From NCBI GenBank assembly GCA_046293175.1, contig JBKBPM010000001.1:171446-235445 (forward strand): 64,000 nucleotides of DNA, written 5' to 3'. Every line of letters begins with the position of its first letter. The first letter of the stretch is position 1. A model generated the notes under the pieces. That model was not told the origin of the DNA and did not search any database. It saw only the letters and a program-made list of their open reading frames with translations. Source of the stretch: Minisyncoccia bacterium (GTDB lineage: Bacteria; Patescibacteriota; Minisyncoccia; Phycocordibacterales; UBA918). Positions 22,959 to 63,716 of this stretch are shown piece by piece. The translations under genes and the position numbers were made by a program.

Positions 22959-23669
22959 ATGAAAAATCCATGGGTTGTTTTGGGCGTTCTATTTGTCCTT
23001 CTTATTGGTGGCGCAATGTGGTATTCGGCTGGGGCCAATGATACCTATAATGCTGGTGTTGAAGTAAAGGCTCATATCAAGGGTAATCCTGATGCGGCAG
23101 TGAAGCTGGTTGAGTACAGTGATTTTCAGTGTCCGGCTTGTGCGCAGTTTCATGGCGTCGTAAAGGAAATTGTTGATGAATATGGTGATCAACTCTCATT
23201 TGAATACCGTCATTTTCCACTGACGCAGATTCATCGTCTCGCTGAGCCGGCTGCTCGGGCGGCCGAAGCCGCTGGTCAGCAAGGCAAGTTCTTTGAATTT
23301 CACGATCTTCTCTTTGAGAACCAAGGGACTTGGTCAAACAGTACCAACCCTGCGCAGTTCTTCCTTCAATACGCGAACGAAGTAGGTCTCGATATTGATG
23401 AATTTACCCGTATGCAGCGTTCATCAATTCTCCGTAATCATGTCCGGTCACAGTTCACCGAAGCACGTACCGCAGGCTTTACGGGTACACCATCCTTCCT
23501 CCTTAATGGTGAACCGATGGAGTTTCAGACCTTTGATGAATTCCGTGCTCAGATTATCAATGCTATTGATCCATCAGTAGATATCACGGGCGGTATGGGT
23601 GCTCCTGCCGCAGCGGGTACAGTTGAGACGCAATCTGAGGCCGCTCCAGCCGTTCAGTTTGGGATTTAA
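22959..23669 (+). CDS. dsbA: DsbA-family thiol:disulfide oxidoreductase (membrane-anchored)
   Basis: A CPAC active site is present together with a GTPSFLLNG cis-Pro region. Confidence 0.75.
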   Translation: MKNPWVVLGVLFVLLIGGAMWYSAGANDTYNAGVEVKAHIKGNPDAAVKLVEYSDFQCPACAQFHGVVKEIVDEYGDQLSFEYRHFPLTQIHRLAEPAARAAEAAGQQGKFFEFHDLLFENQGTWSNSTNPAQFFLQYANEVGLDIDEFTRMQRSSILRNHVRSQFTEARTAGFTGTPSFLLNGEPMEFQTFDEFRAQIINAIDPSVDITGGMGAPAAAGTVETQSEAAPAVQFGI

Positions 23670-24406
23670 TCAATTATATGCCACGTCACACTGACTCGGT
23701 CAGTGTAACTTTTGAATCGCGCCCACTGCTGTCTGGTAGCTTCTCTCGTAAACAGATGTCCGTGTAGTGGCATTGAAATACTTTCGTTAGTCACAAAATA
23801 CAAACTGTCGCCATCTATTTCTGATTCAGTAAATTCGAGAGCTTCAAAATCTTTTGGAAGATAGGGTTTGTAACCGAGCGCAATTTTAAACAGAGCGAGT
23901 CCAATGCTTGAGTGTTTACCGTAGCCGTTTCGATCCTTACCGTGGCTGATGTATTTTTTTCTAAGGTCGGCTGCATGTTTCGTGATAAGGTAGTCCGCAT
24001 ATAACGATGGACCTGCTGGCAATTTACTGTATATCCATTGGTTAGTAAATATTTTGTATGCAATGTTTATTGACTCTTCGGTAATTGAGAAAATCAATCC
24101 ACCAAGCTGTTTGCCTTGTTCTGAAATAGTTAGTATATGATAGGTTTTTTGGTCAGTGTTCTTAGTAGTTTGCTCGATATCAAATATAACCGGACTATTT
24201 TTTTGTGAAATTGTATTTGTATATAGCGGAGTGAACCATTCAAGAAGTGCTGGAGTAAGAGCAGTTATGTTAGAGGTGATTCCGTCACGACTGCTGTGTG
24301 TTTCTGTTTTTAGAATTCTTTTTGCTGACGTCTGACCATACTGATCTGTGATACCGGTTGTTGGATCTTTCCTCCAGGTAACTTTGTTTGGACCGATATA
24401 TTTCAT
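23666..24406 (-). CDS. hypothetical protein, paralog A of a tandem pair (possible acyl/aminoacyl-transferase-like fold; unassigned)
   Basis: The protein shares clear similarity with the adjacent ORF. One aligned block is GKQLGGLIFSITEES.NIAYKIF...PSLYADYLITKHAADL against GQLVGGTIFTMRPDRLSIAYRTY...PALYAEYIITAYALDN. A second is HGKDRNGYGKHSSIGLALFKIALGY against HGVDHNPYGVNSHIGVAIFKLAVGC. Confidence 0.45.
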   Translation of the reverse strand: MKYIGPNKVTWRKDPTTGITDQYGQTSAKRILKTETHSSRDGITSNITALTPALLEWFTPLYTNTISQKNSPVIFDIEQTTKNTDQKTYHILTISEQGKQLGGLIFSITEESINIAYKIFTNQWIYSKLPAGPSLYADYLITKHAADLRKKYISHGKDRNGYGKHSSIGLALFKIALGYKPYLPKDFEALEFTESEIDGDSLYFVTNESISMPLHGHLFTREATRQQWARFKSYTDRVSVTWHIID

Positions 24407-25221
24407 AGAGTTGGTGTATACAACGTTACTTGTAGTTGTTGAGGATACTTGAATACCTGTTCATATTTCTCTGCAGTACTAGTATCTCCAATCAAATACG
24501 CTTTTGTTATTCGTTCCCCACTTTCTGGATAGAGAAGTACCAATGAACCGAACGGTAGCATCTGTAAATCTGACTCACACAAACTGTGTGTGGTAACAAT
24601 ATCTGGGTAGCAACCGACTGCCAATTTAAAAATAGCTACTCCGATATGCGAATTGACCCCGTAAGGATTATGATCAACACCGTGAACCAGTATAGATAAG
24701 TCATTATCAAGTGCGTAGGCGGTAATAATGTATTCAGCATAAAGGGCGGGGGAGCATTTAGTTTGGTGCTGCAGCCATGATAATGGATAGGTGCGGTATG
24801 CAATTGATAAACGATCAGGACGCATGGTAAAAATCGTGCCACCAACCAGCTGTCCTTTTTCTCGTAGGGTAAGTATGAAGTAGGGATACTTTATTACTTC
24901 TTTCCCAAGTGTTGTTTTAAAAATATTGTGCGGCTTTGGATTATGTTTATCTTGTAGATTTTTTAGATACATTGCCTCAAACCATTGTATATCTTCATTT
25001 GTTGCGGGCGTGATAGTATGACTAATTTCCGCTGAGTCAATTTGATTTAAAAGGACGGTTATTTTTTTTGTATTATTTTTTCCAAAATCAGGAAGTATAT
25101 CTGGATGGATATATTTAATCCAGCGATGTTTATCGGCATGAGTGATTTTCATACGGTAGATAACTTGCATATGTATAACATATGTGGTACTATTAAACAA
25201 ATATTGACGGCTCAAAATCAA
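24403..25221 (-). CDS. hypothetical protein, paralog B of the tandem pair
   Basis: It is paralogous to 23666..24406 (see above) and overlaps it by 4 nt. The surrounding DNA is AT-rich. Confidence 0.45.
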   Translation of the reverse strand: MILSRQYLFNSTTYVIHMQVIYRMKITHADKHRWIKYIHPDILPDFGKNNTKKITVLLNQIDSAEISHTITPATNEDIQWFEAMYLKNLQDKHNPKPHNIFKTTLGKEVIKYPYFILTLREKGQLVGGTIFTMRPDRLSIAYRTYPLSWLQHQTKCSPALYAEYIITAYALDNDLSILVHGVDHNPYGVNSHIGVAIFKLAVGCYPDIVTTHSLCESDLQMLPFGSLVLLYPESGERITKAYLIGDTSTAEKYEQVFKYPQQLQVTLYTPTL

Positions 25222-25262
25222 TCCGTCAAAACACTATTACTCCTATTTGTTGCAGATCTTAT

Positions 25263-26534
25263 ATGAAGAAAGCAAGACAAAAAAATATTATTGCTTTTGT
25301 GATGAGTCCGCATGAATCGTCGGTTACTAGTTTACGTGAGTATGAAAAGAAAAATAAAACTCAGTTTCGTTTGATGCTTATTTGGGATATTAATTATCCG
25401 TTGCCGCAAAATCTTGAACGATATGACGTAGTTGTGCAAATGGATTTTTCTAAGTCAATTCGGATAAGTGAAGCCCTTTTACCTTACCAAGATGAACTTC
25501 TTGCAATCACTTGTCGGAGTGAGGCTAATATTGCTCGATTTGCTAAAGTGATTCCTTTTGTTCCGTACTTACGTACTCCTACCACTGAATCACTCATCTG
25601 GGCAACGGATAAGTATGAAATGAGAAAGCGCTTTCGATTATTTGATCAAAAGATAACGCCAAAATTTACTCGAGTAAAAGATGTTTCAAAAAGTGAGCGA
25701 ACACGGGTAATTGCAAAAGTTGGTTTTCCGATGATTATTAAACCTACCAATTTGGCAGCGAGTTTATTTGTGTCTATTTGTTACCACGAGGATGAATTGG
25801 AAAAAGCACTCAAAACATGTTTCAAGAAGCTCGAAAAAGCCTATGCTCACGATAAGCGAATTGAACAACCAAAAGTAATTGCTGAGCAATACATGGAGGG
25901 AGATATGTATTCTATTGACTCGTATGTAAATAGTAGAGGTGCTGTATATCATTTACCCTTGGTGCGCGTAAAAACTGGCAAAGATATTGGTCACCAGGAC
26001 TTTTATGGCTATCTGCAGATGACCCCAACCATCCTTAAGGGTGAGACCGTGAAGCGGGCAGAAGCGGTAACTGAGACGGCCATTCATGCACTTGGTTTGC
26101 GAAGTACTACTGTGCATACTGAGTTGATGAAAATTGATAATGTGTGGAAAGTAATTGAAGTTGGTCCTCGGATGGGTGGGGCACGAGACAAGCTGTATCA
26201 TCTCAGTTGTGGTATTGATCATCCACTGAATGACGTATTTATTCGTATTCCGAAGAAACCAAAAATTCCGAAAAGATGTGTTGGCAATGCTGCATTTATG
26301 AAATGGTTTCTTCCTAAAGAGGGGATTATTACGGAAATGAAGGGTATTAAAAAAATTGAGCAATTAGAGTCATTCTACAAAATCGAAGTTAACAAAAAAA
26401 TTGGCGATAAGGCTACTTTTGCTCGACATGGAGGGCGGTCTATTTTTAATCTCTACATGCATAATGCCGATCGTGGAAAGTTGCTTGCTGACATTAGACG
26501 AGTTGAACAGATGGTTAAAATTAAAGTGAAATAA
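25263..26534 (+). CDS. ATP-grasp domain ligase (L-amino-acid-ligase/carboxylate-amine-ligase-like)
   Basis: ATP-grasp elements are present: ...VIAKVGFPMIIKPTNLAAS..., EQYMEGDMYSIDSYV and VIEVGPRMGG. It is transcribed divergently from the paralog pair and is AT-rich. Confidence 0.6.
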   Translation: MKKARQKNIIAFVMSPHESSVTSLREYEKKNKTQFRLMLIWDINYPLPQNLERYDVVVQMDFSKSIRISEALLPYQDELLAITCRSEANIARFAKVIPFVPYLRTPTTESLIWATDKYEMRKRFRLFDQKITPKFTRVKDVSKSERTRVIAKVGFPMIIKPTNLAASLFVSICYHEDELEKALKTCFKKLEKAYAHDKRIEQPKVIAEQYMEGDMYSIDSYVNSRGAVYHLPLVRVKTGKDIGHQDFYGYLQMTPTILKGETVKRAEAVTETAIHALGLRSTTVHTELMKIDNVWKVIEVGPRMGGARDKLYHLSCGIDHPLNDVFIRIPKKPKIPKRCVGNAAFMKWFLPKEGIITEMKGIKKIEQLESFYKIEVNKKIGDKATFARHGGRSIFNLYMHNADRGKLLADIRRVEQMVKIKVK

Positions 26535-30418: not shown

Positions 30419-31458
30419 TGAAACAACCTCTACTCAAAAAAGTCTCCCTCTGGTTTCTTAGCATCTTTGGCGTTGCTTGTTTCATTATTTTGGCGTTGGC
30501 CTACAAACCAGTTCCGGAACAAATTGCGTATGGTATGTCCTTTAATACACCATACGCACGTGAGCTTGGGCTCGATTGGCAAGAGACCTATGACGCCATC
30601 ATCGATGATCTTGGAGTACGGCGACTACGGCTCGCTGCGCACTGGCCAATGGTTGAGCCACAAAATGATGTCTGGAACTTCAAAGAGCTTGATTATCAAG
30701 TCAAAAAAGCCGAAGCGGTCGGAGCGACAATTGTTTTTGCTGTAGGTCGACGTTTACCTCGTTGGCCAGAGTGCCATGTGCCGGATTGGGTAGATGTGCT
30801 TGATGTCGAGACTCAACAGGCCGAACAGTTGACCTACATGACTGCGGTGATTGATCGTTACAAAGATAGTCCAGCGATTATCTATTGGCAGATTGAGAAT
30901 GAACCGTTTTTGTCACTTTTTGCTTTTGAACATTGTGGTCCACTTGATGAAGAGTTTTTGGCAAAGGAGATCGCCTTGGCTCGCGAACTTGATCCGACAC
31001 GGCCGATTCTCGTCACCGATAGTGGAAACCTTGGTACCTGGGCTGGCGCCTTCCGACATGGTGACGCTTTTGGTACGAGTGTCTACGTACACTTTTGGAA
31101 TCCTGAGCTGGGACAATTCCGCACCCTCTTGCCACCGTGGTTTTATCGTTTCAAAGAAAGTCTCATGGAGCTACGCTATGGTAAAAAGCCAACCCTCCTC
31201 ATTGAACTTTCAGCTGAGCCGTGGCTTGTGGCACCCGTAACCGAAGTGCCGTTAGCGGTGCAGTACACCCGGATGAACCTCGACAAATTTAATGATATTC
31301 TTGAGTATGCAAAGCGTACACGGTATGACACCCAGTACCTCTGGGGTGCAGAGTGGTGGTACTGGCTATATAAACAGGGAGAGCATGCGATGTGGAATCG
31401 TGGGAAAGAACTTTTTCACGAACCAGATGTTGAATCAAAAGACACCGATTCGTTATAA
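30415..31458 (+). CDS. membrane-anchored glycoside hydrolase, clan GH-A TIM barrel (GH5/GH113-like)
   Basis: An N-terminal TM helix is present. The acid/base motif is WQIENEP and the nucleophile is in LLIELSAEPW. Confidence 0.55.
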   Translation: MMKQPLLKKVSLWFLSIFGVACFIILALAYKPVPEQIAYGMSFNTPYARELGLDWQETYDAIIDDLGVRRLRLAAHWPMVEPQNDVWNFKELDYQVKKAEAVGATIVFAVGRRLPRWPECHVPDWVDVLDVETQQAEQLTYMTAVIDRYKDSPAIIYWQIENEPFLSLFAFEHCGPLDEEFLAKEIALARELDPTRPILVTDSGNLGTWAGAFRHGDAFGTSVYVHFWNPELGQFRTLLPPWFYRFKESLMELRYGKKPTLLIELSAEPWLVAPVTEVPLAVQYTRMNLDKFNDILEYAKRTRYDTQYLWGAEWWYWLYKQGEHAMWNRGKELFHEPDVESKDTDSL

Positions 31459-31461
31459 TAT

Positions 31462-32664
31462 TTGGGTATGTATAATGCCAAACAAATTGTGATTTCAAGC
31501 ACAATAAGTGTCATTATTGTGCTTAGTATTTTGTATGTTTTTCGGTACCAACTTGCTGCTACTCTCGTAGTCTTGCCAGCGGTAAGTAATGACGTGGTTA
31601 CGAGCGATACATCTCCTGTTGCAGTTTCAATTCCTGAAATAATTGACCAAGTTGATGGTGCGGTTGTGTCAGTAGTTGCTACTAAAGACGTTCCCGTCTA
31701 TGAGCGTTATCTTGAGGAATATAATCCGTTTGGTGATTGGTTTGGAGGTTTTTCGATTCCGCGTATTCGAGAAAATGGAACTGAGTCACGTGAAGTTGGT
31801 GGTGGTACGGGTTTTATAGTTTCAGATGAAGGTCTGATTGTTACTAATCGACATGTCGTAGTAGATGAAGAAGCCTCCTATTCTGTCGTATTGGCAGATG
31901 GAAGTATTCATGGAGTACGGGTAAAAGCAAAAGACCCTGTCTTTGACATAGCACTACTCCAGTTTGAACAGTTGCCAAAGAACCCATTTCCACATCTTTC
32001 ATTTGGTGATTCTGATGCTGTTCGACGTGGTGATACCGTTATTGCGATTGGTAATGCCTTAGCAGAATTTGATAACTCCGTATCTGTCGGCATAATTTCT
32101 GGTATTGGGCGATCTATTACCGCCCGTGACGGTATGGGTATGACCGAACAACTTTCGAATGTTTTTCAAACTGATGCGGCGATTAACCCAGGAAACTCTG
32201 GTGGACCACTACTAAATAATCGAGGTGAGGTTATCGGAGTTAATGTTGCAGCGTCACTAGGTGCTGAAAATATTGGTTTTGCAATTCCATCGGACACCGT
32301 TAAACAAATTGTTGATTCAGTTACTACCTATGGCGAAATAAGACGACCATTCCTCGGTGTGCGTTATACAATGATAACTGAGCGTATGGCAAAGAAGAAC
32401 AACTTAGACATCACATACGGAGCCCTCGTGGCTCGGGGGGAGACAATGGAAGATTTAGCGGTGATGCCTGGATCTCCTGCAGATAAAGCTGGATTAAAAG
32501 AAAATGATATAATTACAGCGATTGATGATGTAACACTTAAGGATACTGATTTGGCCACCGTGTTGCGATCAAAAGCAGCTGACGCCACTATTGTTCTTAC
32601 TATCTTACGCCAAGGTAAAGAAGAAAAAATATCCGTCACATTAGAATCTGCACCACAAGAATAA
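31462..32664 (+). CDS. htrA: HtrA/DegP-family serine protease with a PDZ domain
   Basis: The catalytic triad elements VTNRHVV (His), DIALL (Asp) and GNSGGPL (Ser) are present, with a C-terminal PDZ domain. Confidence 0.85.
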   Translation: MGMYNAKQIVISSTISVIIVLSILYVFRYQLAATLVVLPAVSNDVVTSDTSPVAVSIPEIIDQVDGAVVSVVATKDVPVYERYLEEYNPFGDWFGGFSIPRIRENGTESREVGGGTGFIVSDEGLIVTNRHVVVDEEASYSVVLADGSIHGVRVKAKDPVFDIALLQFEQLPKNPFPHLSFGDSDAVRRGDTVIAIGNALAEFDNSVSVGIISGIGRSITARDGMGMTEQLSNVFQTDAAINPGNSGGPLLNNRGEVIGVNVAASLGAENIGFAIPSDTVKQIVDSVTTYGEIRRPFLGVRYTMITERMAKKNNLDITYGALVARGETMEDLAVMPGSPADKAGLKENDIITAIDDVTLKDTDLATVLRSKAADATIVLTILRQGKEEKISVTLESAPQE

Positions 32665-32668
32665 GTAC

Positions 32669-32962
32669 ATGAAAGAAACTATCAAAAAAACCATATGCTC
32701 AACTCTTGATACCATAGACTCAACGGTTATATCGGGAACCAAAATGATTGATACACTCGTTAGTCCAACCCGCTCAACTTTCACAAGGAGGTACTCGACA
32801 CCCTTTTCACTACTAGCGATATCAAGCGTGATTATGACATTTGTTGGTTTTGAGCAACTCCCTCTTACGGCCGATATCCTGGAGCGTCATCCGATGCTTA
32901 TCCTCGTGCTCGGTATCGCGATTTTGGTACTCACTGGTACACTGTATAAGAAGTTATCGTAG
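32669..32962 (+). CDS. small membrane hypothetical protein
   Basis: A 97-aa protein with two TM helices. No family was recognised. Confidence 0.25.
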   Translation: MKETIKKTICSTLDTIDSTVISGTKMIDTLVSPTRSTFTRRYSTPFSLLAISSVIMTFVGFEQLPLTADILERHPMLILVLGIAILVLTGTLYKKLS

Positions 32963-33188
32963 TTATGAGTTTTTGGCAGTTTGTTTTTTTCTTTCTGTAC
33001 ATTCGCAACTGGCACACTGGTCAGTTCGAATTATCGCGACCACGTCTTGCGCTCTTTTTTGGTGGATTATTTCTGTTTGTCTTGGCACTCTTACTCGTAT
33101 CAATCATGCAAGCGCCGGTAACCTATGTATCAGGGACGGCCGGATAGTACTGGTCAGATAGTCATTTTTGTGGTATATTTGTAAAATT

Positions 33189-34298
33189 ATGAAATTTGTC
33201 CCAGCCTTTATTATTCTTGCTTTATTTGGTTTATCTGTGCCAGTCGCGGAGGCAGAAACCGTCGTGCGAACCGGTGAAGTGATTTCTATAGCTGATGATC
33301 AGCGCGTCGATGGAAATTTTTATGCCCTTGGCAGTACGGTGTCCCTCTCAGGTACGGTGGCCGGGGATGTAGTGGCCGCTGCTGGCACTGTCTCGATTAA
33401 TGCGCCGGTTGAGCATGATGTGTTAGTACTTGGCGGAACGGTAGGCGTTAATGCGACCGTAACTGAAGATGTACGGATTATCGGAGGTGATGTCACTATT
33501 GCAGATCATGTGGCCGGGTCAGTATTTGTGGTGGGTGGGCGAGTATCAATTCTCTCTACCGCCACTATCGAGGGGGATGTCCTCTTGGTCGCTGGTGAAG
33601 CAGTAATTGAAGGAACAGTTAAAGGTGATGTGCTTGGTGTCGCCGAACGGGTGCGTGTCGATGGTGCCATTGGCGCTCTTGATATGAAGGTGGTCGGTTT
33701 GACCTTGGGTGATCGAGCCGTTGTCTCTGGTGATGTTGCCTATACCAGTCAGACTGACATTGTACGTGCTCCAGGTGCACAGGTTACCGGTGCTATTACT
33801 AAAAATGACACCGTTGCTACCGACTCGATGAGTAGTCCGTATCGCGGTGCCGCGATGGCCTTTTTGGTCTCACTCTTTGCTTCGCTCTCGCTGTATTTGG
33901 TCGCGAAGCGTCCACTTTCACTCTATGCAAGGCAGGCTACCGATAACATCGCTCGTGAAGGTTTTATTGGCTTCGGTCTCTTGGTAGCAGTACCAGTCGC
34001 TATTGTGATTCTCATGGTCAGTGTGCTTGGACTTTTCCTTGGACTCTCGCTTCTCGCCATATTCCTCATGACAATAGTACTCGCACTCCCGCTCATGAAT
34101 GTGATTGTTGGTACACTCATTGGTCGCACGTTCCAAAACACCCATGAGGTCAATACGCTCCTCATCACACTTGGGGCACTGACCGTACAGATGATGTTGT
34201 TTGTACCAGTGATTGGTCCGGTCTTACTCTTCATCCTCTTCCTTGTGACTATTGGGGGAGTAGCGACTGGTATTTACCAACTCCTCAAGAGCCATTAA
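33189..34298 (+). CDS. bactofilin-like beta-helix repeat protein with a signal peptide and a C-terminal multi-TM region
   Basis: GDVxxxGxVxIxG-type repeats recur (DVVAAAGTVSINAPVEHDVLVLGGTVGVNATV...). Several hydrophobic helices follow at the C-terminus. Confidence 0.45.
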   Translation: MKFVPAFIILALFGLSVPVAEAETVVRTGEVISIADDQRVDGNFYALGSTVSLSGTVAGDVVAAAGTVSINAPVEHDVLVLGGTVGVNATVTEDVRIIGGDVTIADHVAGSVFVVGGRVSILSTATIEGDVLLVAGEAVIEGTVKGDVLGVAERVRVDGAIGALDMKVVGLTLGDRAVVSGDVAYTSQTDIVRAPGAQVTGAITKNDTVATDSMSSPYRGAAMAFLVSLFASLSLYLVAKRPLSLYARQATDNIAREGFIGFGLLVAVPVAIVILMVSVLGLFLGLSLLAIFLMTIVLALPLMNVIVGTLIGRTFQNTHEVNTLLITLGALTVQMMLFVPVIGPVLLFILFLVTIGGVATGIYQLLKSH

Positions 34299-34310: not shown

Positions 34311-34336
34311 AAAAAGCCGTTTTGGCTTTTTTGTTT
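34311..34336 (+). terminator. Rho-independent terminator
   Basis: AAAAGCC-GTTTT-GGCTTTT forms a hairpin followed by a T-run. Confidence 0.45.
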
Positions 34337-34393: not shown

Positions 34394-37159
34394 ATGCGCG
34401 AGGGAGTTCCTCAAGAAAAATTTACTAGTCCTGAAGAAGAGATTGCTTTTTTGCGTGAGCGCATTGCGCTCCGCGAACGGGAATTGCTCTCGCGTCAACC
34501 CGAAGCCGACCATAATGACTTTGAAGCGGTAGCAAAAACCGAACTGCGTGAGTATGGCATGTTTACCCCAAAGGTGATTCTTGATGGTGGTCGAGTGATG
34601 GATGGCCACGAGCTCGCGAGCCTGCAGGAACATATCGCAACTACTCGTACTCCGATCGAGGACATCCTCGTGCTCGCCGCCGAAAAGGGGATTCGCAACG
34701 CACTCTCCGTCCTTGAGAAGGTAAATAATCCGTACGTGATTGATGAAGTGCACCGCTCTCTGATCGAACAAATCAAAGGTGGTATGACGACACAGGACCT
34801 GAAAGAAGGTGTGCCACCATGGCAGATACTCCATATGACACTCTTTGAGGTGACCTTACCAGAGCTCAAAAATAGCCAAGATCGCGAGTATCAATTAGCC
34901 GACCTCATCGGCATGATGGAGCAGCTCTTTCGAGGACTGCGTATCATATCAAGCAAGGATAGCTCACAACATGTAGCGCTTGAGATTGCGGTGGCGGACA
35001 ATAGCGACGACATCGTGTTTTATGCAGCTGTACCAACGGAGTTTGTCACGCTTTTTGAAAAGCAGACGCTCTCGCTGTTTCCGCACGCAGTCCTCAGTGA
35101 ACAAGTCCACGATTACAACATTTTTGTCGATGGGGGAGTGAGTATCATCTCCGAGCTTGGACTTAAGAAGCATCCGATCTATCCGCTCCGGACTCATGAG
35201 GCGTTTTCCTCTGACCCGCTGGCAGTACTTCTTAATGCCTTTTCAAAAATTGAACGAGACGGTGGCGGAGCGGCCGTGCAGTTTCTCTTTCGTCATCCGA
35301 AACAATCGTATCGCAGTTCCTATGAAGAAATTGTAAAACGAGTCAAAAAAGGTATGAAGCCAGCGGAAGCGATTCGTCGTAGTACATTAACTGGTGAAAT
35401 GTTAGCCGGGGTCGGTGAACTCTTTTTCTCAAGTGCCAAACCAAAAGACAGTGTCCCACCTGAGCCAGATCAAGAAGCCCTTGAACTCTTCGCCGAAAAA
35501 CAGAAGGGCGATATTTTCGAAACCAATATCCGTATTGCCGTCTCAGCGCGTGATCAACAAAGAGCCAGAGATATTTTGCGTGAAATCGAAGCGACCTTTG
35601 GACAGTATACACATCTGACCGGTAATCAATTTACCTTCCAACATCGTACTGGCTCGAGTCTTCGTCTCGCCGAAAAAGCCTTTTCATTCCGTGAATTTAA
35701 CGGGAAAATCGCTTTGCCGCTCTCGGAGACTGAGCTCTCGACCATTATTCACTTCCCAGGTAACGGGATTGTTTCTTCACCACAGTTTAAGCAGGCACAC
35801 GCTGCTACGGCCGCCGCTCCAACTGATATGCCCACTACAGGCACACTTTTGGGTATCAACCGCCACCGCAATATCGAAAGGGCAATTTACATGACTGAGA
35901 AAGACCGCATGCGCCACTTCTACGTCATTGGTCAGACTGGTACCGGTAAGTCGGTCTTCCTGCAAAACCTCATTCATCAAGATATCGAGGCCGGCCACGG
36001 TGTCTGTATGATTGACCCGCATGGGACTGATATTCAAACAGTACTCGGCTCCATCCCGGCCCATCGTGAACAGGATGTTATCTACTTTGACCCCTCAAAT
36101 CTCGAGAACCCAATTGGACTTAATATGCTCGAGTACGACGAACGCAAGCCCGAGCAAAAGACCTTTGTCGTGAACGAACTCTTTTCAATCTTCCAAAAGC
36201 TTTACGGGGCAAACCCTGAAAGTATGGGGCCGATGTTCGAGCAATACTTCCGAAACGCTACCTTGCTCGTCATGGAGGATCCGGAGAGTGGTAACACGCT
36301 CATGGATATTAGTCGGGTGATGGCAGATGCCAAGTACCGCCGCATGAAACTCGAAAAGGCTAAGAATCCCGTCGTAGTCCAGTTCTGGCGCGAGATAGCA
36401 ACGAAGGCCGGGGGTGAGGCGTCACTTGAGAATATCGTACCATACATTGTATCTAAGTTCGATGTCTTTACGGCGAACGACTACATGCGACCAATTATTG
36501 GTCAGCAGAAGAGTGCGTTTAACTTCCGGCAGATTATGGACGAGCGGAAGATTCTTCTCGTTAATCTCTCAAAAGGTCGTCTTGGTGAAATCAATGCCAA
36601 CCTCATCGGTATGATTGTGGTGGGGAAGATTCTCATGGCCGCGTTGTCGCGCGTGGATAATCCAGCTATGGATTTTGCACCCTTTTTCCTCCACATCGAT
36701 GAGTTTCAAAATGTTTCGACTCCATCCATTGCGTCAATTCTCTCTGAAGCCCGTAAGTACAAGCTCTCGCTCACCATAGCCCACCAGTTCATCGCGCAGC
36801 TTGATGAAGATATTCGTGATGCGGTGTTTGGAAACGTGGGATCAATTGCCTCATTCCGGGTGGGCTCGGAAGATGCGACCTTCCTTGAAAAACAGTTTGC
36901 CCCGTCATTTGAAGCGAACGACCTTATGAACGTCCCGAACTGGAATGCCTTTGTCCGTATGCTTGCTAATGGCGTGCCCACTAAGCCTTTTAGTCTTGCC
37001 GCCATGCCGCCACCAGCGTCTAATCCTGATCGAGTTGAACTTCTCAAAGAGTTCAGTGCCAAACACTACGGCCGTCCGCGCCACGAGGTTGAGGCGGAGA
37101 TATCCGCACGTTACATCAAGGAAGTACCAGCACTTCCATCTCTTAGTGATATACTGTAG
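34394..37159 (+). CDS. VirB4/TraC/HerA-like P-loop ATPase (DUF87-type; type IV secretion-like)
   Basis: The Walker A region reads HFYVIGQTGTGKSVFL, followed by MIDPHGTD. The Walker B/RK region reads FFLHIDEFQNV...EARKYKLSLTIAHQ, as seen in VirB4/TraC/HerA ATPases. No TM helices are present. Confidence 0.5.
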   Translation: MREGVPQEKFTSPEEEIAFLRERIALRERELLSRQPEADHNDFEAVAKTELREYGMFTPKVILDGGRVMDGHELASLQEHIATTRTPIEDILVLAAEKGIRNALSVLEKVNNPYVIDEVHRSLIEQIKGGMTTQDLKEGVPPWQILHMTLFEVTLPELKNSQDREYQLADLIGMMEQLFRGLRIISSKDSSQHVALEIAVADNSDDIVFYAAVPTEFVTLFEKQTLSLFPHAVLSEQVHDYNIFVDGGVSIISELGLKKHPIYPLRTHEAFSSDPLAVLLNAFSKIERDGGGAAVQFLFRHPKQSYRSSYEEIVKRVKKGMKPAEAIRRSTLTGEMLAGVGELFFSSAKPKDSVPPEPDQEALELFAEKQKGDIFETNIRIAVSARDQQRARDILREIEATFGQYTHLTGNQFTFQHRTGSSLRLAEKAFSFREFNGKIALPLSETELSTIIHFPGNGIVSSPQFKQAHAATAAAPTDMPTTGTLLGINRHRNIERAIYMTEKDRMRHFYVIGQTGTGKSVFLQNLIHQDIEAGHGVCMIDPHGTDIQTVLGSIPAHREQDVIYFDPSNLENPIGLNMLEYDERKPEQKTFVVNELFSIFQKLYGANPESMGPMFEQYFRNATLLVMEDPESGNTLMDISRVMADAKYRRMKLEKAKNPVVVQFWREIATKAGGEASLENIVPYIVSKFDVFTANDYMRPIIGQQKSAFNFRQIMDERKILLVNLSKGRLGEINANLIGMIVVGKILMAALSRVDNPAMDFAPFFLHIDEFQNVSTPSIASILSEARKYKLSLTIAHQFIAQLDEDIRDAVFGNVGSIASFRVGSEDATFLEKQFAPSFEANDLMNVPNWNAFVRMLANGVPTKPFSLAAMPPPASNPDRVELLKEFSAKHYGRPRHEVEAEISARYIKEVPALPSLSDIL

Positions 37160-37164
37160 ACGCT

Positions 37165-40092
37165 ATGTCGCTTGAAGCAAAACAAAAGAATCAATTTGAA
37201 GATAAACCATCAGAGTATAGCGTTGCAACATTACGACAACAGGTGGTTGATTTGTCGTCAAAATTTCCTAATATCAAATATCGTGCAGTCGATAAGCAAG
37301 AAGCAATTCGCAATAATTTTGATCAACTTAAACGATTACTTGATCAACCAGACGAAACACTTCTGTCAGAAAGTGAATGTAACCTTGCTGAAGGATTACT
37401 CACTAATATAAAAACACTCCTCGATTTACCTGTAACAGAAGAGCATCGTAACCGAGTAAATAATCGACCTATTCCTGTTGTCTTGCAAGCAATGCCTGGC
37501 ACAATCAGAGAGTCTGATTCCGCAGCTACTGAAATAGTTCAAGAAGTTAAAGAATCATTCAGTGATACAGATGAATTAATCGATCTTTCTGACAGTGCGC
37601 AGTTTGAACAATATGATCAGGAACTCTTAGAGGCAACAAAAAAAGCCTTTTCAAATCAACAATTTTTTAAGGAACATAGACTTGTACAAGGTCTGCAGGC
37701 CCTCGGAACCATGCGAGTTATTTTTGCGCAATGGGATAGAACATTACAACAAATTAAATCAAATCAACAAAACAATAAAGAAGTCGATACCGGATTGTAT
37801 GAGAAACTGAATAAATATTACAATAAAATCCTCGATTTAATTGAGGTAGTTAATGGTGAAGTCACCACCTTCCGTGCAAACCAAGTAGCTGAAGATGAAA
37901 AAAGTTCGGATAGCAATCCAGTTCTCTCAGGTGATGCTCCTGCTGAAGAAGAATCAATAATTGCTAATGAGTCTATTGTCGCATCTGTATCACCCGCTGC
38001 AGTACCTTTGCCGACTCTTGTATTAACCAATGAAGAGAGGGTAACCGAAGAGTCAGGTGCTCCAGTTACTCTCAAACAGCCGCAAGAATCCACTCAGTCT
38101 CCTGAGGTGTCTGCAACCGAACAAATAAACAACAGCATTATTACCATCGCTGATAAATATAAGGCCGAACGTGAATCACTTGGTCGAGCAGCCGATGAGT
38201 TGTTGGCAAAGCCAAACCTGCCTGCCCACGTGCTACAGTCACTCACTTTTGCGAAGTCTGAAATGCTCGTGCATCTTGAACAACTTTCATATACTGATCC
38301 ACAGTACATGCAGCTTCGCGAACGAGTAAAGGAAGTCATTAACGCAGCACAGCAATTAACTGGCGAAGATATCACTATAGCACCAGCACCAAAAATTGAA
38401 GGAGCTAATCACCATCTCGCACCAGAGACAAGAAAGAAACTCTCAGAGAATTCAAAATTACGAGCTGCTTTGTTAGTTGCTATGGTAGCAATCGTGTCAC
38501 CAAATAATGTATCCGACTATAGTGATAATTTCGTAGTTGCTTCAGCTGACATGAGTTCACCACTCAGTCGAATGGGCGAACATGCGCAGTGGATCGGCGA
38601 TACTGCCAGTGGTATTTTGGCAGCTGCTGAGAAAGATGAGCCTAAAAAATTAGTTGTTGTTCGACCATACACAGGCGAAGAGGAAGTCTCTACGGTAACT
38701 GCTGAAGCTCCAACTGAGACGAGGATTACAAACATGAATTTTGCCTCCAGTGGAGAGACTCCACCCTCGGTTGTGGCTGAAGCTGGATCATTACCAGCGG
38801 TAGACCTCAGCGAAGACAATCTACCAAAAGTATCTGAAATAGTCGTAAATCGTTTTGGTTATGAACCAACCGCTCTTGAAGTTGACACTCGTGAGTCAAT
38901 GGTAACGGCTGCTGATACTTCAGTATCCGAGCCAACAATAACAAAAATAGCTGAACCTGATCCCAAGAGCCCAGCCTACCAAGAAAGTATCGCTCCGACT
39001 GAATCAGTAGCTAGTGGTAATACTGTCGTAGAAGTTTTACAAGGTAATGAAGCAACGTACCCAGACCGAGCTATCGATCCACTCCTCGCGGCTGTTGATG
39101 CAACTGGTATTCCTCTGGTACTCGCGAACAAACTCCGCGCCGAAGAGAAAGAAGCGTTCCTGTCTGACGCCAACCGCCTTCGGGCCGCTGGGGTAGGTAG
39201 TGGTCAAAAGAATGTTACTTTCCCAGGCGAAAAAATCAACTACAGTGACCCGGTAGCAAGACTCGATCAGCGTTTTAATGAGTATCGTCAATACTTAAGT
39301 GTACCCCATACAGAAGTAGCGGTTGAAGGAGACAATCTCACTAAACTCGTGGAGAAGTCATACGCACGTGATCTCGCCGTACTCTCTCCAGCTGATCGCT
39401 TGCCGGTAGTAGAGGAAGCTCTGGCCGCGTATCTTGCAACACCTGGAGCCCTCGAAAATCTCAAGCTTAAGGATAAAGATACTGTTCCAATTGCTGCGGT
39501 CGTGCCACTTCAGGTGTTGGCCCGCTATCTCGCTGATGCGGTGGCTAAAAAAGTTCTCACCGCAAATGAGTCTGGTAGCGCTTCGGAAGTATTGGTAGAT
39601 GATAGTTCAACTGCAGAAACGATTGCAGTAGATGTAGATGCCACTTTTAATGCATCTGAAGAATCAGGTAGTGCTTCAAAAGTTATTGAAGACAGGGGTG
39701 AGCCCGGTGAAGTAACGTCTCCGGAAGAATATCCGGGCGGTGTTATAGCGTTTAGCCAGGCCTATAATCAATTGCTCGAATCGTTTGGTATTGCGATTAA
39801 AGCTCCGGCAATGTTTGATAGCTGGTTTACCGTTAATCGGGCAGAATATAATAATCGAGAATTGCTCGGTATGACCGTAGGGGAGATAACCACTATTATG
39901 ATGCAAGATCCGGTAGAGGTGATGCGTGAGCTCAATGCACGCAAGATAAGTCCTGAAGCCGCTAATGCAGTCTATCAGCTTGTCATTGAAGCACGCAAAA
40001 ATGGTTTGGCTCCGTATGCAACTGACTCGACAATCACACTTGAAGAAGTGATCAAACGAAAGGTGCTCGCCGATGCATCAACTAATAAGTAA
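37165..40092 (+). CDS. large acidic hypothetical protein (975 aa)
   Basis: A long uninterrupted ORF with protein-like composition and low complexity in parts. No family was recognised. Confidence 0.4.
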   Translation: MSLEAKQKNQFEDKPSEYSVATLRQQVVDLSSKFPNIKYRAVDKQEAIRNNFDQLKRLLDQPDETLLSESECNLAEGLLTNIKTLLDLPVTEEHRNRVNNRPIPVVLQAMPGTIRESDSAATEIVQEVKESFSDTDELIDLSDSAQFEQYDQELLEATKKAFSNQQFFKEHRLVQGLQALGTMRVIFAQWDRTLQQIKSNQQNNKEVDTGLYEKLNKYYNKILDLIEVVNGEVTTFRANQVAEDEKSSDSNPVLSGDAPAEEESIIANESIVASVSPAAVPLPTLVLTNEERVTEESGAPVTLKQPQESTQSPEVSATEQINNSIITIADKYKAERESLGRAADELLAKPNLPAHVLQSLTFAKSEMLVHLEQLSYTDPQYMQLRERVKEVINAAQQLTGEDITIAPAPKIEGANHHLAPETRKKLSENSKLRAALLVAMVAIVSPNNVSDYSDNFVVASADMSSPLSRMGEHAQWIGDTASGILAAAEKDEPKKLVVVRPYTGEEEVSTVTAEAPTETRITNMNFASSGETPPSVVAEAGSLPAVDLSEDNLPKVSEIVVNRFGYEPTALEVDTRESMVTAADTSVSEPTITKIAEPDPKSPAYQESIAPTESVASGNTVVEVLQGNEATYPDRAIDPLLAAVDATGIPLVLANKLRAEEKEAFLSDANRLRAAGVGSGQKNVTFPGEKINYSDPVARLDQRFNEYRQYLSVPHTEVAVEGDNLTKLVEKSYARDLAVLSPADRLPVVEEALAAYLATPGALENLKLKDKDTVPIAAVVPLQVLARYLADAVAKKVLTANESGSASEVLVDDSSTAETIAVDVDATFNASEESGSASKVIEDRGEPGEVTSPEEYPGGVIAFSQAYNQLLESFGIAIKAPAMFDSWFTVNRAEYNNRELLGMTVGEITTIMMQDPVEVMRELNARKISPEAANAVYQLVIEARKNGLAPYATDSTITLEEVIKRKVLADASTNK

Positions 40093-40098
40093 CATCCT

Positions 40099-40365
40099 AT
40101 GTCTACCGATAAAATGAATCCTGAAGAAGAACAAGCCTTTGCGGTTTTTATTGCCGCTGTTGAGCGCTATGTGGCGAGTGTCGATGAAGCCTCGGGCGAA
40201 CAATTTGAAGCCTGGCTTGATGAACATGCTGAGACAGAAGACTTGCTGCCGCTACTTTTGCAGACCTATCCAAAATTTGGAGAAATTTTTGCAGACGAAG
40301 TAGAGAAGTTGGGTGCACAAACAAATCAAGATGCGCCTTCACTAGCGGTTACTGAGGAAAACTAG
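40099..40365 (+). CDS. small acidic hypothetical protein
   Basis: An 88-aa ORF rich in Glu/Asp. Confidence 0.3.
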   Translation: MSTDKMNPEEEQAFAVFIAAVERYVASVDEASGEQFEAWLDEHAETEDLLPLLLQTYPKFGEIFADEVEKLGAQTNQDAPSLAVTEEN

Positions 40366-40404
40366 TCGATACTTTTTTGATAGAGTGGTAGTATAAGAAG
40401 TGAT

Positions 40405-41940
40405 ATGGTTCAGGAAGTGCGTTCTTCTGCGACTGAGGTCGTTTTTGATTTACACAGCGAAGCTGGTGTGGTGGCTGCTTTGGCAGCGGTCCGTGGGAGC
40501 AACCTGTCTCGTGAAGAAAAAAACGAACTCCGTGATCTCATTTTTGCTTTCAAAAATGAGCCAGACGCCTCACTTGAAGCGACAATACAAAATTCGCTGG
40601 CAAAGCTTACTCCAGCACAAATAACAACACCAACACCTACTCCAGTTTCGGCTCCTGCGACCATAGGTACAACTGCGGTTTCGGCGGCAGCTGCTACGCC
40701 ACGGTATGGTCTCGGTAACACTCGGCCACAGCCAGTGTTTGCTTCACTTCCCGTCACCACAAAAGTGACAGAAAAACCCGGACCTAATCCAGCCTCAGTA
40801 GTGCCTTCTACAGAAGTAATTGCAGAAGTACCAGTTGTACCACCAAATCTTCCGGTTGCACCAAATAAACCTGAGCCAGACCTAAACGTCACCATTACAC
40901 CACCACCAGTTGATCCGGTTCGTATGGTGCCGGTTTCTGTGGCCGCTTCCGACATGATCCCGAAGGCTGTAGTAGATGAAAAACTCGCGACAGTAGCGCC
41001 TACTCCAGAGCCAAGTATTGAACTCAAGCCACCATACCAAGAAGATCATTCACTTGATGTTTATCGCAATCGTATCACCGAAATCAAGCAATTTATTAAT
41101 CAGAAAGTAGGAAACCCGGTAAACCTGGTTGATCTTGATAATACCGTCGGTCGAGCCTACATGGGAGCACTCCTTGAGGCAATGAAAGCGGTCTCAGGCG
41201 GAGGTGGAGATCCAGTTAGTCTTATGGCGAAGCTTGAAGCTGTCGTCAAAGATGTTGAGAAAATATTGGATACAAAATTAGCTTCAGCGCCACAAGCAAC
41301 CCCAGTGACATCAGCTCCAGTGAGTGTGCCGGTAAAGCCAACGGCTGAGACACCAACAGCTGCAGCAGCAACTGCTCCTGCTATCCCGGTACCACACAAG
41401 GCGTCAGACACTACCGCAATGAGTACACCACCAGTGATTGTGCCATCTATTCCAGTTCGTCGGGTCGAAGAACCAATGACCCCAATCACGCCAGGTGATG
41501 TAGCTCAGTCTCGCTTCAAGAATGTTATACCAGTCACCGCACAGGAGCCTCTCAAGACACCAAAAGATCTCCCAACTGCCGCTGAAGTAAAAGCCCGCTC
41601 AGGCATTACTGACCCACTGGCTGATCCAGATGTGGATCTTGGTCTCGAACAACTATTGAGTGAATGGTCTCTATTTCGCAAGAGTGGGGTTTTTGGCACC
41701 GGTCCTAAAGGGACACAACACCCACTTTATCAAAAGCTTGCGGTACTCCAGATGCCACTGATTTTATCTGGTCGGTTTGAGGGTTCAACGCCTGAAATCC
41801 GACAGAGTATCACCGACTATATGAATGGTTGGCGCTATGAACAGGGTATTATCTACGAGCAAGAAGAAACCTTTGAACACTACCTCCGCCGCGTGATTCG
41901 TCATATCATCGATTCACAAACCAGACGCCGTGCTGCATAA
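40405..41940 (+). CDS. Pro/Thr/Ala-rich hypothetical protein with a structured C-terminal domain
   Basis: It contains long PTPTP/PAPA tracts. The C-terminal ~120 aa are not low-complexity. Confidence 0.4.
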   Translation: MVQEVRSSATEVVFDLHSEAGVVAALAAVRGSNLSREEKNELRDLIFAFKNEPDASLEATIQNSLAKLTPAQITTPTPTPVSAPATIGTTAVSAAAATPRYGLGNTRPQPVFASLPVTTKVTEKPGPNPASVVPSTEVIAEVPVVPPNLPVAPNKPEPDLNVTITPPPVDPVRMVPVSVAASDMIPKAVVDEKLATVAPTPEPSIELKPPYQEDHSLDVYRNRITEIKQFINQKVGNPVNLVDLDNTVGRAYMGALLEAMKAVSGGGGDPVSLMAKLEAVVKDVEKILDTKLASAPQATPVTSAPVSVPVKPTAETPTAAAATAPAIPVPHKASDTTAMSTPPVIVPSIPVRRVEEPMTPITPGDVAQSRFKNVIPVTAQEPLKTPKDLPTAAEVKARSGITDPLADPDVDLGLEQLLSEWSLFRKSGVFGTGPKGTQHPLYQKLAVLQMPLILSGRFEGSTPEIRQSITDYMNGWRYEQGIIYEQEETFEHYLRRVIRHIIDSQTRRRAA

Positions 41941-41948
41941 TAGAGCAC

Positions 41949-42569
41949 ATGCTCGCTCACCACGCTCTCCTAGAAATCACCCCGCAGCGTACGGAAGCAA
42001 TTTCTCGTTACAAAGCGGAAGTCGACCAAGCAGTCGAGGTGATTGTGTACGAGGTTGAATCTCTCACCATAGAAGACGTCAGGTACCTCAATACGCTCGC
42101 GTACCAAACACCCGGTTCATATGAGAGTCGCACGATTGTGATAGCGGCACGGGTCATTAACCGTGAGGCACAGCACGCGCTTTTGAAGATGCTCGAGGAG
42201 CCACCAAAGACCACCGCGTTTTATATAATTCTCCCGTCTATTGCGAGTTTGTTACCAACTGTGCTGTCGCGCGTAATAATAGTTGCTAGTGATACCGTTG
42301 TAGATAATGGACACCCCCTCTTTGTTGCTTTTATAGAGGGAGCTCTCAACGCTCGTCTTGATATGATAGCTGATATCGGCAAGCGAAAAGCTGATGAGGA
42401 CTATGATTCACTCTACGATGGACTGGTTGCGTATGTATCGCAGGTGAGTGATCCACACGCACTGACAGCAATTGAGTCCGCGTTACGCTTTTTGCGCCAA
42501 AAAGGGGCCGCGAAGAAGATGATTTGGGAACATCTGGCACTTACGCTGCCGGTCAAAGCAAAGAGATAA
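41949..42569 (+). CDS. holB: DNA polymerase III delta-prime-like clamp-loader subunit (short)
   Basis: The LLKMLEEPP and LPTVLSRV motifs match the clamp-loader SRC/sensor regions. No intact P-loop is present. Confidence 0.55.
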   Translation: MLAHHALLEITPQRTEAISRYKAEVDQAVEVIVYEVESLTIEDVRYLNTLAYQTPGSYESRTIVIAARVINREAQHALLKMLEEPPKTTAFYIILPSIASLLPTVLSRVIIVASDTVVDNGHPLFVAFIEGALNARLDMIADIGKRKADEDYDSLYDGLVAYVSQVSDPHALTAIESALRFLRQKGAAKKMIWEHLALTLPVKAKR

Positions 42570-63360: not shown

Positions 63361-63716
63361 CTACCCTCCAGAAAAATAGTACCACCACCTCATACACCTA
63401 CGACCACCTCGGCCAGCGTCTCGAAAAAGCCCGTGGTACCGGTACTACCACGTATGTGGGCGGTGGGTACGAAGTAGCACCAACTGGAGTCACCAAGTAT
63501 ATCTACGCTGGTGGGGAACTGGTAGCCACCATCGCTGGTATAGGAACTACTACTACCTCCTATATCCATCGGGACCACCTATCCTCTACGAATGTAACTA
63601 CGAACCAAAGTGGAGGAGTATCTACCGTCTTAGACTACTACCCGTACGGCTCCACTTGTATCGATATGGGTATACACCGAGTTAGCGGAACGAAATATTT
63701 AATTTATCAAATTTAA
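63357..63716 (+). pseudogene. orphan Rhs core fragment (119 aa) homologous to residues ~2290-2390 of the main Rhs protein
   Basis: TTLQKNSTTTSYTYDHLGQRLEKARGTGTTTYVGGGYEVAPTGVTKYIYAGGELVATIAGIGTTTTSYIHRDHLSSTNVTTNQSGGVSTVLDYYPYGST is near-identical to the main gene. The fragment diverges and terminates before the DPxG core end, with no toxin domain. Confidence 0.6.

Follow-up and report, generated by a model that had tools for sequence, protein, structure and literature searches.

A census of the ultrasmall Patescibacteria, or candidate phyla radiation (CPR), reports 5,713 VirD4-type homologues in 2,918 genomes, of which only 148 are located near virB4, and its authors suggest exaptation of these homologues (PMC12102498). 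The type IV secretion system (T4SS) of Patescibacteria is described in reviews as essential in Saccharibacteria and as being of unknown function. Here we describe a run of four genes, headed by a gene for an ATPase of 921 residues, in a stretch of 64,000 nucleotides from a Minisyncoccia bacterium (assembly GCA_046293175.1, contig JBKBPM010000001.1, positions 171,446 to 235,445 of the forward strand). This whole stretch is called the window, the four genes are called the module, and the 975-residue protein encoded by the second gene is called partner X. By its sequence, the ATPase is assigned to the branch of the HerA/FtsK ATPases that contains the type IV coupling proteins (T4CPs) VirD4, TraD and TrwB, and the module is conserved across many related species.

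The ATPase domain family is already known, as is the N-terminal domain, which is listed in Pfam as a domain of unknown function, and homologs of the ATPase are labelled 'type IV secretion system DNA-binding domain-containing protein'. This family may be among the T4CP matches of the census (PMC12102498). We found no description in the literature of the module, of the anatomy of its partner proteins or of the MreB-like neighbour, and none of the link to SPO1 gp27.4 and Bacillus plasmids or of a VirB4-like overall fold.

Relationship of the ATPase to type IV coupling proteins

The P-loop domain of the ATPase obtained its best sequence matches from T4CP models and from the coupling proteins TrwB and DotL. 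The Pfam model T4SS-DNA_transf (PF02534) scored 28.5 bits over residues 505-805, with a cut-off of 20.1, TraG-D_C (PF12696) scored 22.5 bits with a cut-off of 22, and DUF87 also scored above its cut-off, while a match to PF10412 was confined to the P-loop. The top NCBIfam matches were TraD and VirD4 models, and the only sequence matches of note among solved structures were TrwB, which ranked first with an E-value of 1.3e-3, and DotL. The conserved positions of the T4CPs are likewise present, namely Walker A, Walker B and the equivalents of the GRK arginine and the GLQS glutamine. Invariance of these motifs was judged from an alignment of 45 ATPase homologs, across which residues D769-N773, R787 and Q798 are as invariant as those of Walker A (Table 1). 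In this respect, R787 aligns with the GRK arginine of TrwB and Q798 with its GLQS glutamine. A mostly helical insertion of about 240 residues that is predicted between the two Walker motifs may be a further likeness to the T4CPs.

By comparison, VirB4, HerA and FtsK models aligned to the P-loop only. The VirB4 model TIGR00929 aligned with residues 508-534 only and scored 14.2 bits (E = 0.0096), where the cut-off is 643, and PF03135 gave no match. The HerA model NF040819 scored 14.8 bits against a cut-off of 970, and the FtsK/SpoIIIE model PF01580 scored 22.5 bits over residues 488-527 only, which is under its cut-off of 24. HerA and FtsK/SpoIIIE belong to the same ATPase superfamily as the window ATPase, but the latter has no detectable HerA N-terminal barrel and neither the membrane domain nor the gamma domain of FtsK. 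A DNA-repair HerA acting with NurA had been named as an alternative at the outset; however, no NurA, Sir2 or DUF4297 partner was found among the neighbours, and the HerA score is far below the cut-off.

The first-pass annotation, which was made from the sequence alone, had described a P-loop ATPase resembling translocation ATPases of the VirB4/TraC/HerA type, with Walker A GQTGTGKS, a DEFQN...EARKYKLSLTIAHQ box and no transmembrane (TM) segment. The profiles support a translocation-type ATPase from the clade of VirB4, VirD4 and HerA, and both motifs are present as described. The ATPase indeed lacks a TM segment, as its single Kyte-Doolittle peak, at residue 733, corresponds to a helix in the core of the nucleotide-binding domain that is conserved and also present in distant relatives. 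The narrower likeness to VirB4, TraC and HerA stands as far as the clade is concerned, but the sequence profiles point to T4CPs and only the two-domain fold is VirB4-like.

Several properties set the window ATPase apart from the T4CPs. It has no N-terminal TM anchor and instead carries an extra N-terminal domain of 480 residues (DUF8128), it is encoded by a chromosomal and apparently single-copy gene with ~66% conservation across the best-matching species, and there are no relaxase or T4SS genes nearby.

Predicted architecture and fold of the ATPase

The architecture of the ATPase, as predicted from profiles, is DUF8128 followed by a DUF87/T4CP P-loop domain. The DUF8128 assignment was taken from precomputed matches on homologs that are up to 95% identical. 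A search with the N-terminal domain alone retrieved 816 cluster representatives among 1.84 billion proteins, and no mention of DUF8128 was found in the literature. The AlphaFold model of the ATPase has a mean predicted local distance difference test score (pLDDT) of 68. In its N-terminal half, the pLDDT exceeds 70 over most of residues ~70-460, with dips near residues 130-170, 280-290 and 330-350.

When this model was compared with the PDB by Foldseek, full-length TrwK/VirB4 structures came first, with E-values of 2.7e-12 to 1e-9 over ~900 aligned columns and low TM-scores of 0.24-0.29, and they were followed by TrwB (2e-7) and then by HerA (1.4e-6). VirB4 entries of the PDB that hold the C-terminal domain alone were absent from the top 50, and the N-terminal domain therefore appears to add to the VirB4 fold match. 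The window ATPase resembles VirB4, TraC and TrwK in its size (these proteins have ~800-920 residues), in the absence of a TM segment and in its division into two domains, of which the C-terminal one is the ATPase. Unlike them, it shows no sequence match outside the P-loop, it has low TM-scores and it has no VirB3, VirB6 or VirB8 gene nearby; VirB3 and VirB8 were found neither in the window nor in the related loci that were read. In summary, the ATPase would be a coupling-protein-type motor within a VirB4-like, two-domain and anchor-free body.

Conservation of the module in Patescibacteria

One genome per species was scanned, in which 489 species were found to encode a relative of the ATPase, and the best 80 loci were read. 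The gene order at related loci was mapped by tblastn of the window genes onto a set of loci numbered L001-L084. All close homologs come from metagenome-assembled genomes labelled Paceibacteria, Parcubacteria, Kaiserbacteria or Nomurabacteria, the matching species being mostly labelled Paceibacteria. In the best 80 of the 489 matching species the ATPase is 61-96% identical to the window protein, and the order of genes is fixed: ATPase, a variable gap of 1-7 kb, the homolog of the 511-residue protein, holB, frr, rseP, proS and mreB. This supports the view that the four genes belong together as a unit which is conserved and specific to the lineage. Compared with the window proteins, the median identity is 78% for mreB, 66% for the ATPase, 63% for proS, 61% for frr, 54% for rseP, 36% for the 511-residue protein and 33% for holB. 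The ATPase gene is apparently single-copy, with one per locus read.

The comparisons indicate that the four open reading frames (ORFs) are real genes, since the ATPase and the 88- and 511-residue proteins have many homologs and their order recurs in ~80 species. The coordinates, the common direction and the tight spacing of the ORFs are as annotated before; every ORF is on the + strand, and the gaps along the run are 5, 6 and 39 nt. As the upstream gene is ended by a terminator-like hairpin (Table 1), a new transcription unit begins at the ATPase gene. The upstream hairpin is as described in the first-pass annotation, and no terminator was found between the gene for the 511-residue protein and the holB-like gene. 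Because of this lack of a terminator and of the short gap, the holB-like gene is probably co-transcribed with the module. The holB-like gene is always located 3' of the homolog of the 511-residue protein. Its product, an unusually short delta-prime-like protein, aligns with the DNA_pol3_delta2 model over positions 65-155 only, and it is also ~210 residues long in L001 and L003, the two loci with gene calls that were read.

A co-directional gene for an MreB-like paralog precedes the ATPase gene in 65 of the 71 loci with enough upstream sequence. It ends within ~2 kb of the ATPase gene, and at a distance of 50-400 nt in most loci (e.g. L001:8888-9904). This paralog is ~40% identical to canonical MreB and matches Pfam MreB_Mbl with an E-value of 1.8e-127, and in most related species it exists besides the canonical mreB-mreC-PBP2 cluster downstream. 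The window and the loci of its two closest relatives (L005 and L006) have no MreB-like gene at this position. In its place, before the hairpin, this clade has genes for an unrelated trio of membrane proteins, one of 376 residues and two small ones. The possibility that the 376-, 97- and 60-residue proteins are equivalents of VirB6, VirB3 or VirB2 found no support.

A hidden Markov model (HMM) of the module's own P-loop domain (E ≤ 0.01) detected no second ATPase related to the module ATPase in the window or, over a distance of 10 kb, in 82 loci; VirB4 may be too distant from this model, which does not cover other ATPase classes. The window as a whole is, according to protein-family scans, an ordinary stretch of a Patescibacteria chromosome. 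It is full of core genes, including those for the F-type ATP synthase, pgi, fpg, greA, aspS, frr, rseP, proS and mreB-mreC-PBP2, and contains neither tRNA genes nor Rfam matches.

Table 1. Positions in the window of the module genes, their domains and motifs, and adjacent features.
Feature	Position	Strand	Basis or remark
Two small membrane proteins (97 and 60 aa) preceding the 376-aa gene	32669-32962, 32965-33147	+	no Pfam match
376-aa protein: signal peptide, ~200 aa of GDV-type repeats (possibly beta-helix), 4-5 C-terminal TM segments	33168-34298	+	no Pfam match
Terminator-like hairpin (stem of 9 bp, then a T-rich tail)	34311-34331	+	ends the upstream gene
921-aa soluble ATPase with T4CP-type P-loop domain	34394-37159	+	ORF, profiles, orthologs
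N-terminal half of the ATPase, aa 1-480: helical leader (aa ~13-128) and alpha/beta domain, assigned to DUF8128 (PF26449)	34394-35833	+	profiles, model
Walker A GQTGTGKS, aa 513-520	35930-35953	+	G513-K519 invariant in 45 homologs
Walker B DEFQN (aa 769-773) and EARKYKLSLTIAHQ box (aa 785-798)	36698-36787	+	alignments
Partner X, 975 aa, acidic, isoelectric point 4.6, net charge -60	37165-40092	+	ORF, composition
Weak hydrophobic segment of X, KLRAALLVAMVAIVSPNNV, aa 432-450	38458-38514	+	19-aa stretch
Putative degenerate LysM-derived domain of X with helical insertion, aa 701-797	39265-39555	+	family profile
Conserved C-terminal domain of X, aa 849-975, motif NIKYETxxxWxDL...GELFxR	39709-40089	+	HMM
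88-aa acidic protein, isoelectric point 4.05, net charge -17	40099-40365	+	ORF, composition
511-aa Pro/Thr/Ala-rich protein	40405-41940	+	ORF, homologs, AlphaFold
Short holB-like gene, 206 aa, 8 nt after the 511-aa gene	41949-42569	+	neighbour rather than a demonstrated module gene

The three proteins encoded downstream of the ATPase

As noted before, the three downstream proteins could not be assigned to a family; none of them reached a Pfam or NCBIfam model, and calculation confirmed the acidic and Pro/Thr/Ala-rich compositions ascribed to them. The alternative that they are common housekeeping factors was also considered, and the downstream neighbours of the ATPase are not ordinary factors of this kind. 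PADLOC and PHROGs gave no matches for the three proteins, and thus no support for an origin from a defence system or a phage. Their earlier description as low-complexity proteins is apt for the variable or disordered stretches, but a search for tandem repeats found none and each protein contains conserved folded domains. A convincing TM segment or signal peptide was found in none of the four module proteins.

In most loci, 9-60 nt separate the ATPase gene from the ORF for partner X, whose product varies in length from 268 to 1850 residues among other species. The first ~700 residues, corresponding to the N-terminal two-thirds of the window protein, are hypervariable. This is illustrated by the comparison with locus L005, where the ATPase is 96% identical and the flanks have 81% DNA identity, but where no nucleotide similarity is detectable over window positions 37167-39275 (~2.1 kb). 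By contrast, the C-terminal domain of ~140 residues is conserved in at least 36 loci and in both long and short forms of X. It occurs once per locus and always beside the ATPase, the exception being a tandem duplication in L030, and neither the remainder of 82 loci nor that of the window yielded further copies. This one-per-locus occurrence speaks against the domain being a multi-copy effector tag. A database search with the alignment of the C-terminal domain returned one fragment only.

In most long orthologs of X, a LysM-like domain is preceded by one or two hydrophobic segments that are uncharged and rich in Gly and Ala. From their sequence, paired segments could form a TM hairpin, in which case the C-terminal domain would be cytoplasmic in both forms of X; membrane insertion of the single segment in the window copy (residues 432-450) is doubtful. 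Iterated HMM searches on the loci identified this LysM-like domain, which spans ~100 residues with an insertion of ~45 residues, in ~30 loci. Pfam LysM (PF01476) is matched by 11 of 18 copies, with a best E-value of 3e-6, and not by the window copy, and the profile of the family matches the LysM repeats of LytE with an E-value of 7.9e-11. The short forms of X (~270-800 residues) have neither the hydrophobic segments nor the LysM-like domain, and in 17 loci they have an N-terminal domain of their own; Pfam found nothing in seven short-form proteins. Since the short forms are devoid of these envelope features, the core module appears to be entirely soluble, the membrane and LysM features being an add-on. 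No enzymatic or toxin domain was found in X by Pfam.

Conservation of the ~80-residue domain in the 88-residue protein extends to 38-41 loci, and the protein is found together with the long form of X. An iterated HMM of the X C-terminal domain drew in the 88-residue family. However, profile-profile comparison gave a probability of only 3% for this relationship, and we therefore attribute the pull-in to profile drift and do not consider the two as relatives.

The 511-residue protein consists of 11.7% Pro, 8.6% Thr and 10.8% Ala (31% combined). It has 832 homologs, none of which is named or has a Pfam domain, and a homolog is present in nearly every locus with downstream sequence. Alignment and the AlphaFold model agree on three confident helical domains (residues 10-70, 215-293 and 400-511), the last of which includes an invariant DYMNGWRYEQG. 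The disordered linkers between them hold two conserved motifs, GFxxxRPxPxF and PLKTPxDLPTA. For the fold of this protein, Foldseek against the PDB gave nothing (best E = 2.4), and neither did a profile search of PDB sequences. No kinship was found among the domains of the 511-residue protein, the X C-terminal domain, the domain of the 88-residue protein and the LysM-like domain, and no DNA-binding domain was found in any of the partners.

Homologs of the ATPase on phages and plasmids

Among the PHROGs, the ATPase matches phrog_5156, which has no assigned function, with an E-value of 9e-83 over residues 187-905. A tblastn search for phage homologs yielded 55 records, nearly all of them from Bacillus and Geobacillus phages, including SPO1 gp27.4 (906 residues), JL gp150, G gp156 and TP-84 ATP06113.1. 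For the phage and plasmid homologs, BLASTP gave 22% identity to the ATPase over ~750 residues. Foldseek against BFVD matched the ATPase with phage G gp156 (E = 1.6e-34, TM-score ~0.5, 848 columns).

In SPO1 (L088, positions 86879-100555) and JL (L090), the homolog is part of a co-directional cluster that consists of an actin-like Alp gene, four or five small genes, the T4CP-like ATPase and, directly after it, a Replic_Relax gene (in SPO1, Alp is gp27.9, the ATPase gp27.4 and Replic_Relax gp27.3). For SPO1 and JL, respectively, the E-values are 2e-27 and 4e-18 for ALP_N and 3e-12 and 3e-18 for Replic_Relax (PF13814). None of the conserved domains of the Patescibacteria module is related to these phage Replic_Relax proteins. 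The order in phage G (L089) is TrbL_4 (VirB6-like), the small gp154, a TraG/VirB4-like ATPase and then the member of the window ATPase family. The copies of phages G, JL and TP-84 have an internal hydrophobic segment (residues ~183-216) and no N-terminal anchor; SPO1 gp27.4 has no such segment. The conjugation-derived modules in these lytic phages appear to be uncharacterised.

The homologs on Bacillus plasmids, annotated as 'DUF87 domain-containing protein', have 885-913 residues and no TM segment. Here, the homolog opens a conjugation gene cluster and is immediately followed on its 3' side by a replication-relaxation gene; further downstream are genes for TcpE, for conjugal transfer proteins and for a separate ATP-binding protein of ~850 residues, which is taken to be VirB4 and which distinguishes the homolog from VirB4. 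From this gene context, the ATPase family occupies the usual position of the coupling protein in conjugation systems. Of the two Bacillus plasmids examined, one has a ParM/StbA gene adjoining the homolog. Alphaproteobacterial and Streptomyces plasmids carry orphan relatives of the ATPase domain, with 28-33% identity. One of these, a T4CP-like protein of 708 residues that is 33% identical to the ATPase domain (E = 1e-64), is encoded on plasmid p131_1 of Bradyrhizobium sp. 131 (L093, positions 144085-157257) next to CHAT-domain and TPR proteins, which are typical of conflict systems, and without a T4SS.

Altogether, the phage and plasmid homologs resemble the window ATPase in their two-domain architecture without an N-terminal membrane anchor, and the Patescibacteria family in their link to an actin-fold gene. 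They differ in that they belong to mobile elements, where they are paired with Replic_Relax or T4SS genes, in that they do not have the first ~190 residues of the Patescibacteria protein, and in that none of them is accompanied by partner X or by the 88- or 511-residue protein.

Possible roles of the module

In view of its family, of its conserved catalytic residues and of the settings of its homologs on plasmids and phages, we regard the ATPase as a coupling-type translocation ATPase that has turned into a fixed chromosomal gene. Following a general adaptor-plus-motor model, we tentatively prefer the reading that the module is a domesticated coupling-type ATPase motor with dedicated adaptors, fixed in the chromosome. 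The ATPase would then descend from the coupling-protein ATPase of monoderm conjugation systems. It would most likely form a ring of the HerA/FtsK type and, with energy from ATP, transport or restructure a macromolecule, for which DNA or a nucleoprotein complex is the most plausible candidate. Partner X would bind the ATPase via its conserved C-terminal domain, and in most lineages it might tether the complex to the membrane via the Gly-rich hydrophobic hairpin, while carrying the LysM-derived domain. The small acidic protein would accompany the long form of X, the 511-residue protein would use its flexible linkers to connect three small helical domains that serve in binding, and the MreB-like filament protein encoded just upstream would be part of the unit in most species. 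That X and the 88- and 511-residue proteins are dedicated partners is suggested by the tight spacing, by the co-conservation and by the single-copy nature of the X C-terminal domain.

It should be noted that several observations weigh against this reading. The NCBIfam scores of the ATPase fall far short of every equivalog cut-off, there is no hydrophobic segment in residues 1-500 that could serve as an N-terminal TM anchor, and the helical insertion between Walker A and Walker B, predicted at residues ~588-716, has pLDDT values below 50 over residues 583-700. Genes for a relaxase, VirB4, VirB6 or other channel components were found neither in the window nor in the loci read, and no relationship of the module partners to relaxases or known folds could be detected. 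Furthermore, a distant member of the ATPase family (30% identity) stands alone, without module partners, among the housekeeping genes mraZ-mraW-ftsI-murE, rmuC, recR and dnaB, and the second of the two distant members checked has another T4CP-like ATPase nearby. The full module is thus a trait of one large sub-lineage. Lastly, in Southlakia epibionticum the T4SS is reported to be essential and the T4CP homologue, which may or may not be an ortholog of the window ATPase, to be dispensable (PMC12102498).

The first-pass annotation had proposed that the locus could be the ATPase core of a secretion or DNA-transfer apparatus. This proposal is not supported, as there is no channel or other polytopic membrane component, no detectably related second ATPase within 10 kb, and a minimal module that is soluble. 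Any role in secretion or DNA transfer therefore needs machinery that is encoded elsewhere. The motor would either hand its substrate to the separately encoded T4SS of Patescibacteria or act wholly inside the cell. A link to the separate T4SS is favoured by the conjugation ancestry and by the membrane-type segments and LysM-like domain of long X. We consider an intracellular DNA-handling role and a role in secretion or DNA transfer to be equally possible.

The strongest alternative, which we judge to be somewhat less likely than the preferred reading, is a T4SS-independent intracellular DNA machine in which the ring ATPase and an actin-like filament position, segregate or resolve the chromosome during replication or division, with the disordered partners as a scaffold. 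An actin-fold gene is indeed tied to the ATPase family in three unrelated settings, namely as the MreB-like paralog of Patescibacteria, as Alp in SPO1 and JL, and as ParM/StbA on a Bacillus plasmid. However, the window's own clade is without the MreB-like gene, the actin-like proteins of phages and plasmids are not orthologous to the MreB paralog of Patescibacteria, and on small plasmids a partition gene may lie next to the homolog by chance. Such a machine would also be in keeping with housekeeping or DNA genes as neighbours (holB downstream of the module, and the genes listed above for the distant member), with conservation at the housekeeping level in the absence of T4SS genes nearby, and with the entirely soluble minimal module. 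On the other hand, the membrane-type segments and the LysM-derived domain in many long forms of X point to the envelope, and the absence of a recognisable DNA-binding domain from every partner also argues against it.

A wider proposal joins the filament with the motor: an actin-like (MreB-paralog) filament, a soluble coupling-type DNA motor and disordered adaptors might constitute a core machine of the Paceibacteria that segregates the chromosome or moves DNA at the T4SS, and that has a common ancestry with the Alp/T4CP-like/Replic_Relax modules of SPO1-like phages and Bacillus plasmids. We regard this proposal as speculative and, taken as a whole, unlikely.

Effectors of the Xanthomonas T4SS carry a conserved C-terminal VirD4-interacting domain (XVIPCD). 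The C-terminal domain of X may be analogous to this arrangement, and partner X might be the cargo of the ATPase, i.e. a hypervariable effector or surface protein that is recognised through its C-terminal domain and exported by the T4SS towards a host, with the 88-residue protein as its chaperone. The extremely fast divergence of X outside its C-terminal ~140 residues would fit this idea, but a disordered acidic sequence is expected to diverge fast even without an arms race. Similarly, the Gly-rich hydrophobic segments and the peptidoglycan-binding-type domain would suit an action on the envelope of a target, and the small acidic partner does accompany long X; yet the short forms lack all of these envelope features, and no enzymatic or toxin domain is present. 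Moreover, effector tags occur in multiple copies, unlike the X C-terminal domain with its single copy beside the ATPase. We therefore consider this alternative improbable.

It is very improbable that the gene order reflects mere inherited synteny around an orphan exapted P-loop protein, for example of a conflict or defence system, with three independent proteins downstream, since the solitary distant family members, the conflict-type neighbours of the Bradyrhizobium relative and a PADLOC match to mad8 (E = 3e-14) are outweighed by the short gaps without an internal terminator, by an order that is kept in ~80 species despite the turnover of partner X, by a site among core housekeeping genes with conservation far above that of typical defence genes, and by the restriction of the mad8 match to the P-loop domain.

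Other features of the window

An ORF at 54777-62804 on the + strand encodes a protein of 2675 residues with SpvB, TcdB_toxin_midN, FG-GAP, RHS-repeat and Laminin_G_3 domains. Because of this set of domains, it is a candidate polymorphic toxin of the Rhs/Tc type. It is followed by two small overlapping ORFs without a Pfam match (62806-63360 and 63357-63716), which could encode immunity proteins, and the GC content of the toxin-candidate region is 0.40-0.45 compared to a window average of ~0.47. A gene for an HtrA-like protease (Trypsin_2 and PDZ; 31462-32664, + strand) has no counterpart at the corresponding site in the two closest relatives, where the alignments jump from window position 31420 to 32702, and it thus represents a recent insertion or deletion. 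A local dip of the GC content to 0.37 at 24001-26000 may mark acquired DNA. It spans two ORFs on the minus strand without a Pfam match (23666-24406 and 24403-25221) as well as the first part of a gene that resembles those for ATP-grasp/L-amino-acid ligases (25263-26534).

Biological significance

With the present analysis, one family of VirD4-type proteins that is a candidate for exaptation gains a defined anatomy, which includes an MreB-like neighbour that recurs across loci, partners of its own and a degree of conservation like that of housekeeping genes. Patescibacteria depend on a T4SS of unknown role, and the defined anatomy of the module makes the role of orphan VirD4-type genes testable. 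In addition, the link between the Patescibacteria ATPase, SPO1 gp27.4 with phrog_5156 and the plasmid proteins suggests that soluble coupling proteins with a VirB4-like architecture are a distinct and widespread type. For this wider family of ATPases, B. subtilis is a tractable model.

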